Shown piece after piece: positions 14,394 through 19,424 of a stretch of DNA of 32,000 bases. The stretch is from Halogeometricum borinquense DSM 11551. GTDB lineage: Archaea; Halobacteriota; Halobacteria; Halobacteriales; Haloferacaceae. The notes beneath the pieces were generated by a model, which was given only the letters and a program-made list of their open reading frames with translations, ran no database searches and was not told the origin of the DNA. The position numbers were made by a program, and so were the translations under genes. The first letter of the stretch is position 1, and the number at the start of each line of letters is the position of its first letter. The DNA lies in NCBI RefSeq assembly GCF_000172995.2, contig NC_014729.1, positions 750,001 to 782,000 of the forward strand, read 5' to 3'.

Positions 14394-16106
14394 TCAGTTA
14401 TCGACTGGATCCGCGTCGAACGCGAACTGCCACGCCGCTCCCTCCCAGTCGTCGGCGTCGGCTGACTCGGGTATCGACGTGTCGCAGTATCCTAACAGCG
14501 AGACATTGCGCTTGTCATCCTTTCCCTGCCAGATGATGGATGCCGTTCCGTCCGGGGGTGCCCCCGACGGGTGTTTGGGCGGCGTCTCGTCCGGTCCGAA
14601 CGAGCCGTACAAACCGCTACTCTCGTCGGATTCCATAACGCCAACTCGTTCGACAGTGCCGACGGCCGGCCCGAACGTGAGACGGATGTGTCGCGGGACG
14701 AGTGCCGATTTTCCACCCAACAGTCCCGTTCGCGTTTGGGTGTCTGTTGTGTCTGCGCCCATCCAGAGCCAGTGTCGGTAGTCGGCTTCGTCGTCGTCCG
14801 GCAGTGTAACTGTCATCTGCATCGCTCGGATGACTCCCGGGCCGGAGACGCGTTCCCACTGGTCTGCGAGTGCTTCGACCATCACCGTCGCACCGTCGAA
14901 CCGACTGGTTTCGTCGTCACTAGTTACCGTCGGCAACTGGTTTTCGACCTGTTGGCTGTTCTCCGTGAGCATGCTGACTGCGCTCTCCTGATCGAACGAG
15001 CGGTCAGCACGCCGACTGCCGCGGATGGCGTACGCCTTCGGCGTGGCGGCTGACACTGCCGCAGTCCCGATAACTGTTGTTCCAACTGTCGCCGCCGCGG
15101 CACGGAGCATGCCTCGCCGTGTTGGCTTCCCTGTCTGGTCCGACTTCGATTGCTCGCGCGACCGCAAATCCGAGAGGACTCGGTCGGCGACGACCGTCGC
15201 GCCGTTTTTGTAGGACGGTGACTCCATCGATGCCTGTGCGGCGGCGACCGCGGCGTCCTCGTCGCCGACGACGGAGAACCCGCGGAGGTCCCGCAGTCGG
15301 CTGGCGACACCCGACTGCTCGTCGGTTGCAGGATATACCACGCAGTGGGTGCCCGCTACTGCGGCGTCCATGACGGTCGAGTACCCGGAGCAAACGACGG
15401 CGTCGGCCGCGCGGAGGTACGGAAGCAGGGAGGGGACCGCTTCCCATCCCTCGGAGCCAACGTTTACAACCGACAGGCCGCGGTCTGTGAGTCGCTCCCC
15501 GACCGATTCGAGGTTGGAGTAATGGCTTGGGACGACGACGACATCGATATCTGCGGGGACGCCATCATCCGATCCGTCGAGGGCAATCGGCGGGACGTGA
15601 ACCGCTTGGTCGGGATCATCGGGTTTCGGTTCCCAGACGGCGGGGTAGAAGAACTCCCGGGAGACGGACAGTTGCAGCGAACAGTGAAACTGCGCGCCGA
15701 GTCGTTCCGTTCGGTCCTCGTAGATGCTCGGCATGTCGTGTTTCACGACGTACTGCGGGATGCCGACTCGGACGGCGGCCATCACGGCAAACATGTCGTC
15801 GGTGACGACGGCGTCCGGGTCGGTTTTGCGAAGCCACTCCACGATTTCGGAGATCCGACGGGTCGTGTCGGGGATACTTCCTGCAAGGAGATCAGTCACC
15901 GTTCCGTCTTGATAATCGCCGATGTAATCGACGGTCGTCGGTTCGAACGCGTCGTATCCGTTCAAATCGACGAACCGGGCGCCCGCTCCACCACCTGCGA
16001 TCTGGATTTCACAGCCCGCGGATTCGAGGGCGCGGGCAATCGCTAGCATCCGCGTCGCGTGTCCCGCACCTTCACAGTAGTGGATGATGGCGATGTTGGA
16101 GGGCAT
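14394..16106 (-). CDS. GT-B glycosyltransferase (MurG/GT1-like) continuous in frame with a Tat-signal-bearing domain of unknown function
   Basis: N-terminus MPSNIAIIHYCEGAGHATRMLAIARAL resembles the glycine/His-rich first loop of GT-B enzymes. The C-terminal lobe includes AADAVVCSGYSTVMDAAVAG. At aa 334-369 there is a full Tat signal (KPTRRGMLRAAAATVGTTVIGTAAVSAATPKAYA), followed by about 210 aa with no recognisable family. I chose the ATG at 16106. The track start at 16130 is a TTG. Confidence 0.7.
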   Translation of the reverse strand: MPSNIAIIHYCEGAGHATRMLAIARALESAGCEIQIAGGGAGARFVDLNGYDAFEPTTVDYIGDYQDGTVTDLLAGSIPDTTRRISEIVEWLRKTDPDAVVTDDMFAVMAAVRVGIPQYVVKHDMPSIYEDRTERLGAQFHCSLQLSVSREFFYPAVWEPKPDDPDQAVHVPPIALDGSDDGVPADIDVVVVPSHYSNLESVGERLTDRGLSVVNVGSEGWEAVPSLLPYLRAADAVVCSGYSTVMDAAVAGTHCVVYPATDEQSGVASRLRDLRGFSVVGDEDAAVAAAQASMESPSYKNGATVVADRVLSDLRSREQSKSDQTGKPTRRGMLRAAAATVGTTVIGTAAVSAATPKAYAIRGSRRADRSFDQESAVSMLTENSQQVENQLPTVTSDDETSRFDGATVMVEALADQWERVSGPGVIRAMQMTVTLPDDDEADYRHWLWMGADTTDTQTRTGLLGGKSALVPRHIRLTFGPAVGTVERVGVMESDESSGLYGSFGPDETPPKHPSGAPPDGTASIIWQGKDDKRNVSLLGYCDTSIPESADADDWEGAAWQFAFDADPVDN

Positions 16107-16139
16107 CGTCTGCCTCATGAATGTGCACAATCATATTCC

Positions 16140-18013: not shown

Positions 18014-18925
18014 TCAATCGACGATTTCAACGTCGAACTTGCTGTGCCAGCGATAGCGCCGGCCACCCCAGACGAAGGTCCGACGTGCGTACGCGTAGGC
18101 CATCAGCGGCACCATGGCGAGTACCGACGGATAGGCGAGCAGTGCGGTCCATCGCCGCTGTCCAAACGCGAGGTAGATGGCTCCGTGCATGGCCGTCAAT
18201 ACTGCCCCCGTACCGAGGGGGAAGCGGATTGAGAAAGCGGTTAACACCAGTAGCAGAACAATATTGACGACCGCCGCTGGCGGATCGTGGTAGCGGACCA
18301 GTTTCATGAATCTGACGTGGCGTTCTAGCGTCTCTCGAACGGATCCGCCCATTTCAACGCGTCGAGCGCGCCGGAGCGTCGTCACGTCGATGTACTCCCC
18401 GAGCAGCCCGTCGTCGCTGATCGTCTGGCGTAGTTCCTTTCGAAAGGCGTCGACGTCGAGGTCCGAGCGCTCAAAGATCACGGCACCGCCCCATATGACG
18501 TCGCCAGCCCAGACACTGAACGTCCCGCCGAACGCGTATCCCGGTTCGAGCAGTATGGAGAGTGGGTCCTGGCCGACGAAGAAGGGGACTTCCGAGACGG
18601 GGCCGTGCGTTTCGTAGTCAGCGTTGAGAGTGGCCAGCCAGTCGTCGGGGTGGTGGAAGTCATCGTCGGTCCAGACGATGCGGTCGTGGCGTGCCCGTTC
18701 CATCCCGACGTCGATGGCGTTGGCCTTGCCCGAACAGCCATCGGGCACGCCCGCGACGACCACTTCGACTCCTGCGGGGAGGCCATCGCGGTCCGCGACA
18801 CGATCCGACTCGTCGTCACAGACCACGAGCAGTTCGTCGTCAGGCCCGAGCTGATCAGCGACTTCCTGGCATGCGGTGGTCCACGTGGTCGTCGGGAGAA
18901 GAACTGTCGTTGGCGGGCGGCCCAT
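18014..18925 (-). CDS. GT2-family (GT21/ceramide-glucosyltransferase-like) integral membrane glycosyltransferase
   Basis: The N-terminal GT-A fold has LLVVCDDESD, GKANAI and WTDDDF (DxD). The C-terminal part has several TM helices. This architecture is typical of lipid-directed GT2 enzymes. Confidence 0.7.
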   Translation of the reverse strand: MGRPPTTVLLPTTTWTTACQEVADQLGPDDELLVVCDDESDRVADRDGLPAGVEVVVAGVPDGCSGKANAIDVGMERARHDRIVWTDDDFHHPDDWLATLNADYETHGPVSEVPFFVGQDPLSILLEPGYAFGGTFSVWAGDVIWGGAVIFERSDLDVDAFRKELRQTISDDGLLGEYIDVTTLRRARRVEMGGSVRETLERHVRFMKLVRYHDPPAAVVNIVLLLVLTAFSIRFPLGTGAVLTAMHGAIYLAFGQRRWTALLAYPSVLAMVPLMAYAYARRTFVWGGRRYRWHSKFDVEIVD

Positions 18926-19325: not shown

Positions 19326-19349
19326 CCTTCACGAGGATGGAAAAACGAG

Positions 19350-19424
19350 TGGGTTGGGGCGGATTCGAACCGCCGGCCTGCTCCGTGTGAAGGAGCCGTC
19401 ATAACCTGGCTAGACCACCAACCC
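19350..19424 (-). tRNA. tRNA-Val (anticodon CAC)
   Basis: I folded the 75-nt cloverleaf by hand. The acceptor is GGGUUGG/CCAACCC. The anticodon stem is GCUCC/GGAGC with loop UUCACAC. The T-arm is GGCGG-UUCGAAU-CCGCC. A T5 run follows the 3' end. Confidence 0.9.

Follow-up and report, generated by a model that had tools for sequence, protein, structure and literature searches.

The window analysed here is a 32,000-nucleotide stretch of Halogeometricum borinquense DSM 11551 (contig NC_014729.1, positions 750,001 to 782,000; all coordinates below are those of the window). On its reverse strand lies a single open reading frame (ORF) that joins a glycosyltransferase-like N-terminal part, a twin-arginine (RR) segment resembling a signal of the twin-arginine translocation (Tat) pathway, and an acidic C-terminal domain (C-domain). 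The frame runs without a stop codon from the transferase part into ...KPTRRGMLRAAAATVGTTVIGTAAVSAATPKAYAIRG... and beyond. The program-made ORF list gives it as 14394..16130, or 578 amino acids if begun at a TTG. The start supported by orthologues and public annotation is an ATG at 16104-16106, which yields 570 amino acids, and the orthologues share the beginning M(S/P)xxIA(I/V)(I/V)HYCEGAGH. The 570-residue product is 100% identical to the hypothetical protein ADQ66419/ELY31139 of H. borinquense DSM 11551. An original prediction, made from the letters alone, had placed a Tat-type signal midway through one 570-residue glycosyltransferase ORF; its coordinates were right and the uninterrupted frame is confirmed.

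That prediction had left three readings: loss of a stop codon that fused two genes, a secreted protein made from an internal start, or an internal membrane anchor that places a domain outside the cell. It had also proposed asking whether orthologous loci carry one ORF or two, and they carry one in every case. Seven loci were compared, namely the window, Haladaptatus halobius (L001), Haladaptatus sp. DYF46 and four metagenome contigs. The six orthologues are full length, share 52-60% identity with the window protein, and in 7 of 7 loci the transferase, the RR segment and the C-domain form a single ORF. Four distinct H. borinquense protein variants, deposited in independent public records, are all 570 residues long. 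The H. halobius copy lies on an 816-kb replicon (a megaplasmid) and is annotated as one coding sequence in RefSeq. A search of the genome collection for further members or split versions returned two Haladaptatus loci only, both fused; the plasmid collection returned only the H. halobius megaplasmid copy, and the metagenome collection yielded no split version or further member. One apparent split form, P0125 (347 residues, from a JGI metagenome, in the cluster of the H. halobius protein P0002), was rejected, as its break falls inside the transferase and not at the linker. In P0125 the first ~250 transferase residues are replaced by 34 unrelated residues, after which the sequence is normal, indicating a frameshift or truncation (a pseudogene or an assembly error).

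Selection along the protein was estimated from the ratio of nonsynonymous to synonymous substitution rates (dN/dS) by region in the closest pair of loci (L002 and L003, dS about 0.18). The ratio is 0.14 in the transferase domain, 0.10 in the RR/hydrophobic segment and 0.21 in the C-domain; in the 16-codon linker it is 0.83. Purifying selection acts on the transferase, the signal-like segment and the C-domain, and the segment is under constraint equal to that on the enzyme. The linker drifts almost neutrally, with amino-acid identity of 31-44% between distant orthologues and 81% in the close pair, and one orthologue carries a three-residue indel that keeps the frame. There are no stops and no frameshifts in any locus. 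Retention of a near-neutral linker in this intact state is what would be expected if the covalent link matters. We hold with high confidence that the single ORF is the selected form. It is a conserved, rare domain architecture rather than an artefact.

The twin-arginine segment matches a Tat signal in several respects. In the window, T-R-R-G-M-L-R fits the class consensus S/T-R-R-x-F-L-K; an uncharged stretch of 20-21 residues comes next, with basic residues behind it. The pattern across the orthologues is [STG]RRx[MVLAI]L[RH], in which R330, R331 and L334 are invariant in the six orthologues; A339, G342, G347, A353 and Y359 further along the segment are also invariant. The uncharged stretch is 18-21 residues long in every orthologue. 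The C-terminal flank has a net charge of +1 to +4 across the orthologues (+4 over 15 residues in the window), and the N-terminal flank in the window has a net charge of +4. A rough residue-frequency estimate would put the chance occurrence of the motif together with the uncharged stretch at ~1e-6 per protein. Given this estimate, and a motif that is invariant in six orthologues despite a freely diverged linker, chance is an unlikely explanation. The position is atypical, since the twin arginines lie at residues 330-331 of 570 and not within the first ~35 residues as in a classical Tat signal. The original prediction had also named an AxA cleavage site. The sequence AYA is present in the window, but it is not conserved, being PYA in two other H. 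borinquense variants and SYH, PYS, SYW or PYH in orthologues. A small-residue motif, V-S-A-A, is conserved at residues 351-354 (15045-15056), with VSA in one orthologue and TTAA in another.

Insertion energies were estimated with a re-implemented Hessa 2007 predictor. The RR-adjacent segment scores +0.84 to +2.26 kcal/mol across all orthologues (+1.0 kcal/mol in the window) and is the best membrane-helix candidate in each, the next-best segment scoring +2.9 kcal/mol or higher. The same scan finds no membrane-helix candidate inside the transferase domain. For comparison, a 347-residue protein encoded next to the transferase has a C-terminal anchor at -1.7 kcal/mol and a signal of the general secretory (Sec) type at -1.3 kcal/mol; the anchors of paralogue subfamilies score -0.2 to -0.7 kcal/mol, and a core helix of a four-helix extension found in paralogues scores -2.9 kcal/mol. 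Overall, ordinary anchors range from -0.24 to -2.92 kcal/mol in this estimate. All six orthologous segments weakly match the Tat-signal models TIGR01409, formate_TAT, MelC1 and UCR_Fe-S_N (Rieske TAT signal), none above cut-off. Short signal models often miss true signals. In the full-length AlphaFold model the hydrophobic region is of low confidence and unstructured.

The GT-B assignment of the original prediction rests on several consistent matches over both halves of the fold, every one of which lies below its family cut-off. In the N-terminal half these are Glyco_transf_4 (residues 23-147) and the TIGR00661 MJ1255 family (residues 19-143); in the C-terminal half they are MGT (residues 239-289), Glyco_tran_28_C and the PDB structures YjiC/EspG2 (residues 215-292). 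TIGR00661 reaches 27.4 bits against a cut-off of 195.9, PF13528 (Glyco_trans_1_3) 12.5-19.3 against 25, and PF13439 19-27 against 28.5. The transferase also carries a conserved stretch resembling a nucleotide-sugar-binding site, CSGYSTVM(D/E)AAVAGT...P.T.EQ. The full-length AlphaFold model shows alternating strand and helix in the transferase, with a predicted local distance difference test (pLDDT) score below 50 in its N-terminal half. Haloarchaea contain more than 290 homologues of the transferase, and relatives are publicly named 'glycosyltransferase'. Our literature search on haloarchaeal glycolipid GT-B enzymes and the MJ1255 family found nothing relevant.

Extensions of the paralogues were surveyed in the best 120 homologues. 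Most of these are 380-557 residues long and have a variable acidic linker followed by hydrophobic segments whose starting point is shared; the smaller group, of 318-345 residues, consists of the transferase alone. The paralogues of Halorarius, Haloarcula, Halosimplex and Halorussus resemble the window protein in their transferase (50-61% identical), in the acidic linker and in the point at which the hydrophobic part begins. They differ from it in what follows, which is either one hydrophobic stretch that ends in an Arg-rich tail or a conserved module of four helices, and none has the beta-sandwich domain described below. Membrane attachment through a C-terminal extension thus appears to be the habit of the family. 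Such habitual attachment would fit a lipid-linked acceptor, as in MurG-like enzymes.

The four-helix module spans ~130 residues in one paralogue subfamily (P0007, P0008, P0029, P0030, P0037 and others) and is marked by the motifs QQVAA, SLPTYAG, VPSVLLASGPVVGWA.NHW and EMALLYGG. Some of these paralogues are tagged PF26268 in precomputed data; the PF26268 model is absent from the Pfam copy that we searched. In two members the first helix of the module is preceded by R-R-R-L-L-G, and it is followed by a conserved Tyr in the register of Y359. Homology between the RR segment and this first helix, suggested by eye from the shared order of RR, hydrophobic residues, Y and R/I, is not claimed, as a profile comparison was not significant (probability 0.6%).

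The C-domain lies outside every Pfam and NCBIfam family, in agreement with the earlier description of about 210 acidic residues of no recognised family. It contains an invariant motif, AD(Y/F)RHW(L/I)W, and several other invariant aromatic and charged residues. A word-indexed search with the C-domain gave zero matches and missed even the parent 570-residue protein; this was treated as a limit of the index, and an exhaustive profile search was substituted. Across 1.84 billion representative proteins that search returned the domain's own cluster and one weak match, and no free-standing homologue. That weak match, to P0121, a repeat protein of 1178 residues (E 2.5e-4), is regarded as non-informative. 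On the evidence of these sequence searches, the C-domain is found fused to this transferase only. Folding of the C-terminal part, another check that had been proposed, gave an all-strand AlphaFold model, a predicted beta-sandwich of moderate confidence (mean pLDDT 67.6, predicted template modelling score 0.67, pLDDT 64-92 over residues 418-570). A PDB fold search with this model found generic beta-sandwich matches only (E >= 0.005, template modelling score <= 0.33) and none at E <= 0.001, so no fold family is assigned. The transferase and the C-domain are both acidic, with net charges of -26 and -20.

Table 1. Features of the transferase gene and of its surroundings in the window
Feature	Position	Strand	Basis or remark
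Whole coding sequence	14394..16106	-	570 codons + TGA stop 14394-14396
Divergent GT-B-like glycosyltransferase domain, predicted cytoplasmic, aa 1-313	15168..16106	-	sub-threshold profile matches
Variable polar linker, aa 314-326 (LRSREQSKSDQTG), contains TTG 15165-15167	15129..15167	-	orthologue divergence
Basic n-region, aa 327-335 (KPTRRGMLR), twin-arginine motif	15102..15128	-	RR codons CGG CGA 15114-15119
Weakly hydrophobic h-region, aa 336-355 (AAAATVGTTVIGTAAVSAAT)	15042..15101	-	sole candidate membrane-spanning segment
c-region, aa 356-360 (PKAYA), holds the AxA site named earlier	15027..15041	-	sequence
Orphan acidic C-terminal domain, aa 361-570	14397..15026	-	outside Pfam/NCBIfam families
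Predicted beta-sandwich core of the C-domain, aa 418-570	14397-14855	-	AlphaFold model
DUF7827 protein, 347 aa	12808-13851	-	
Candidate ORF, 85 aa	14012-14269	+	
TnpB-type ORF, 444 aa	16274-17608	-	OrfB_IS605 + Cas12f1-like TNB domain
GT2/GT21-like gene	18014-18925	-	
tRNA-Val (anticodon CAC)	19349-19424	-	Rfam match at gathering threshold
Probable large surface protein, 1606 aa	20964-25784	-	DUF4625, Big_13 and other Ig-like matches

Bitopic enzymes, in which a cytoplasmic catalytic domain is joined through one helix to a domain outside the cell, are common, PknB-type Ser/Thr kinases being an example, and many anti-sigma factors are built in the same way. The premise of the original prediction, that a cytoplasmic transferase and a Tat-exported domain make no sense as one polypeptide, was therefore wrong; internal Tat signals are documented as well (PMC5449189). 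The best reading in our judgement, and one that we rate slightly above an even chance, is a one-polypeptide bitopic membrane enzyme with a Tat-like internal anchor. It corresponds to the third of the earlier alternatives, the internal anchor with a domain outside, which is the best supported of the three by the single ORF, the conserved segment and its Tat-type physicochemistry.

We propose that the N-terminal ~313 residues act as a GT-B-type nucleotide-sugar transferase that is kept in the cytoplasm. The short, freely evolving linker would lead to the basic twin-arginine motif and to a 20-residue Ala/Gly/Thr/Val segment, which would cross the membrane in an N-in/C-out orientation. On the outer face, the final 210 residues would form an orphan beta-sandwich, and an extracytoplasmic location of the C-domain is, in our view, probable. 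Insertion would be carried out by Tat acting on an internal, probably uncleaved, signal-anchor, such that the folded C-domain alone is threaded across and the enzyme is left behind on the cis side as a loop. The thylakoid pathway reportedly leaves N-terminal extensions on the cis side through such a loop mechanism. Haloarchaea route most of their secreted proteins through Tat. Since the segment looks too polar for Sec-type insertion and combines the Tat consensus with Sec-avoidance charges, in organisms with this use of Tat, the Tat route is the most likely of those available; that Tat performs the translocation of the C-domain is nonetheless a tentative assignment, which we place somewhat below an even chance. 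Still more doubtful is the full form of the proposal, a natural Tat substrate whose signal lies ~330 residues in, behind a folded enzyme and lacking an upstream helix, with loop transport of the beta-sandwich only. The anchor would hold the transferase at the membrane, as the hydrophobic extensions of the paralogues probably do, and the domain outside may serve to bind or sense either the glycan made by the enzyme or a partner at the cell surface. The inferred parts of this model are membrane insertion and topology, dependence on Tat, lack of cleavage and what the outer domain does.

Several points weigh against the model. They can be summarised as (i) entry of the segment into the membrane, and the involvement of Tat, are predictions from features of the sequence; (ii) the near-threshold TIGR01409 Tat-signal profile gives 8.5-15.8 bits in the six orthologues against a cut-off of 16.7, and a PF10399 match gives 14.6 bits against a cut-off of 24; (iii) the insertion energies are approximate values from the re-implemented predictor, for which a poly-Ala/Leu sanity check behaved as expected; (iv) the structure models rest on a shallow alignment of six sequences, and the full-length model, at a mean pLDDT of 48, is too poor for the transferase half; (v) in every known case, an internal Tat signal comes after Sec-inserted helices that already tether the protein to the membrane, and here there are none; (vi) a limited literature search found no natural precedent for a Tat signal behind a 330-residue soluble domain; (vii) family, motif and fold searches recognised no cofactor motif or site in the C-domain; and (viii) the gene neighbours differ in every locus, so that no conserved neighbourhood hints at function.

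Two alternatives would dispense with the single polypeptide. In one, a recent stop loss, or an assembly or sequencing error, joined a transferase gene to a gene downstream that encodes a Tat-secreted protein. The junction does resemble a gene boundary, as the transferase fold ends there, a variable stretch follows and a signal begins, and the start-type codon beside RR in some orthologues could be the fossil of an old fusion. The same ORF is, however, present in four H. borinquense variants and, at 52-60% identity, in two genomes of Haladaptatus and four contigs from metagenomes, and neither arrangement was found as separate genes in the collections searched. On the original prediction's own terms this refutes the lost stop codon, and we consider a recent event extremely unlikely; one ORF everywhere, with separate versions not found, means that any fusion must be ancient and maintained by selection ever since. 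It is speculation that the ATG or GTG beside RR in some lineages is the relic of such a very old fusion. In the other alternative, translation that initiates inside the gene yields a distinct Tat-secreted protein, perhaps from an internal transcript and in addition to or in place of the full-length protein. In haloarchaea, transcription often starts inside genes. One to two positions before RR there is an ATG (M-I-S-RR) in the DYF46-type loci L002 and L003, that is, two codons before RR in Haladaptatus sp. DYF46 and a related contig, and a GTG one codon before it in the contig L005. In the window, an in-frame TTG 15 codons before RR (15165-15167) would give a plausible n-region. The original prediction had called this TTG the sole in-frame candidate upstream of RR; it is the nearest, but an ATG sits 35 codons upstream. 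Against a nested gene, the start position is occupied in 4 of 7 loci by CTG (L001, H. halobius), CTA (L004), CTC (L006) or CCA (the window), and L004 has no ATG, GTG or TTG in the 60 codons upstream of RR. Inspection by eye revealed no suitably spaced TATA-like element upstream of the TTG in the window (a promoter and terminator scan had used the bacterial sigma-70 consensus, which is inapplicable to archaea, and its result was not used). Moreover, were the fusion unimportant, the near-neutral linker would tolerate stops and frameshifts; it shows neither, and its single indel preserves the frame. Since the start codon is not conserved, a separately translated secreted protein cannot be the conserved function, and we regard the nested gene as very unlikely. 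The internal start of the original prediction therefore fails as a conserved mechanism, but internal initiation may still occur in individual species.

Two further alternatives keep the polypeptide but change its fate. The protein could be wholly cytoplasmic, its Ala/Gly/Thr-rich stretch serving as a flexible or peripherally membrane-associating linker whose RR likeness to Tat signals has another cause. The positive insertion energy, by which spontaneous or Sec-type insertion is not predicted, is consistent with this, as are the Tat-signal models that stay below their cut-offs; the acidity of both domains has also been counted here, though in a halophile it is uninformative on inside versus outside. 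A mere linker would not be expected to evolve as this segment does, at a dN/dS of 0.10 beside an adjoining true linker at 0.83, its RR-x-x-L and some of its Gly and Ala positions being unchanged in all orthologues. The class consensus, the 18-21 uncharged residues and the basic C-terminal flank recur in all orthologues, and most relatives bear unmistakable transmembrane extensions at the same place. We judge a cytoplasmic protein improbable. Alternatively, translocation could be followed by a signal peptidase cut after V-S-A(-A), the gene then encoding a two-product precursor of a secreted beta-sandwich and a tail-anchored transferase. The VSAA motif and its VSA and TTAA variants form a conserved end to the h-region, where a -3/-1 site would lie, and the cleaved enzyme would resemble the many relatives that consist of a transferase and a short hydrophobic tail only. 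The AYA site proposed earlier is, by contrast, not conserved, a structural role would account just as well for the conserved Y359 and for the basic residues behind the segment, and no free-standing homologue of the C-domain was found that would suggest a function on its own. Cleavage is, in our estimate, unlikely.

The bitopic enzyme with an uncleaved internal anchor can be set beside several known systems. In proteins that depend on both Sec and Tat, the last, Tat-dependent helices have insertion energies of +0.23 to +1.76 kcal/mol, whilst the first, Sec-inserted helices are negative (Tooke et al. 2017, PMC5449189). The Tat-dependent internal helices are weakly hydrophobic and have positive charges on their C-terminal side, and experiments showed that both features make Sec release the helix (PMC5449189). 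Internal Tat signals function in nature (PMC13186574). The window protein shares with the dual Sec/Tat proteins (PMC3471235, PMC5449189) an RR right before the last, weakly hydrophobic helix, a positive insertion energy, positive charges after it, a globular C-terminal domain that would lie outside, and a signal that is internal rather than at a free N-terminus. It differs in that theirs is preceded by two to four Sec-inserted helices, whereas here a 313-residue soluble enzyme precedes the segment and an upstream helix candidate is absent; their exported domain binds a cofactor, whereas the orphan domain here shows no cofactor site that could be recognised. Uncleaved N-terminal Tat signal-anchors, such as those of proteobacterial and plastid Rieske proteins (reviewed in PMC7317946), share the use of a Tat signal as an N-in/C-out anchor, but they sit at the extreme N-terminus with a short n-region and not mid-protein. 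PknB-type kinases and many anti-sigma factors likewise combine, in one polypeptide, a domain in the cytoplasm, one span and an outside module for binding or sensing; their helices, in contrast, are normally hydrophobic, inserted by Sec/YidC and without a twin-arginine consensus, and the enzyme class and outside domain are unrelated. GT-B enzymes of the MurG/MJ1255/YjiC type (GT28/GT1-like) are linked to the window protein by weak matches to both Rossmann halves, but classical members are soluble or peripheral without a transmembrane extension, and the matches are far below cut-offs. The general architecture, with an enzyme inside, one span and a module outside, is ordinary. The segment itself would work like an internal Tat signal-anchor, but we do not file it with the dual Sec/Tat proteins or the classical Tat signals, since it lacks an upstream Sec-inserted helix, a cofactor domain and an N-terminal RR position.

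Tat signals are defined and sought as N-terminal features, and TatFind covers the first 35 residues only. If the proposed reading is true, Tat recognises signals that lie far from the N-terminus and does so without prior anchoring in the membrane, and genome-wide secretome predictions overlook such proteins. The protein would then also offer a natural way to test the loop or hairpin model of Tat transport, and it would couple a transferase physically to a module outside the cell, one that may bind or sense the glycan which the enzyme makes. For haloarchaeal surface biology, the analysis directs attention to a still uncharacterised family of GT-B transferases with membrane anchors, one clade of which has an orphan outside domain. 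Should the segment prove to be an ordinary anchor, what is left of the finding would be a novel arrangement of domains in a little-studied family of enzymes.

The surroundings of the gene in the window hold several further features (Table 1). The TnpB-type ORF ends 168 base pairs upstream of the transferase start and stands between the transferase and the GT2/GT21-like gene; its insertion may have displaced the transferase promoter or broken an older operon of two transferases. Just downstream of the transferase, the DUF7827 protein, with its Sec-type N-terminal signal and hydrophobic C-terminal anchor, has no counterpart at the orthologue loci. The 85-residue candidate ORF, which has two hydrophobic segments and runs towards the 3' end of the transferase gene from the opposite strand, has neither a family match nor a counterpart at the orthologue loci. 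The 1606-residue ORF, with its DUF4625, Big_13 and other Ig-like matches, probably encodes a large surface protein. The tRNA-Val gene is the only Rfam match in the window at the gathering threshold.

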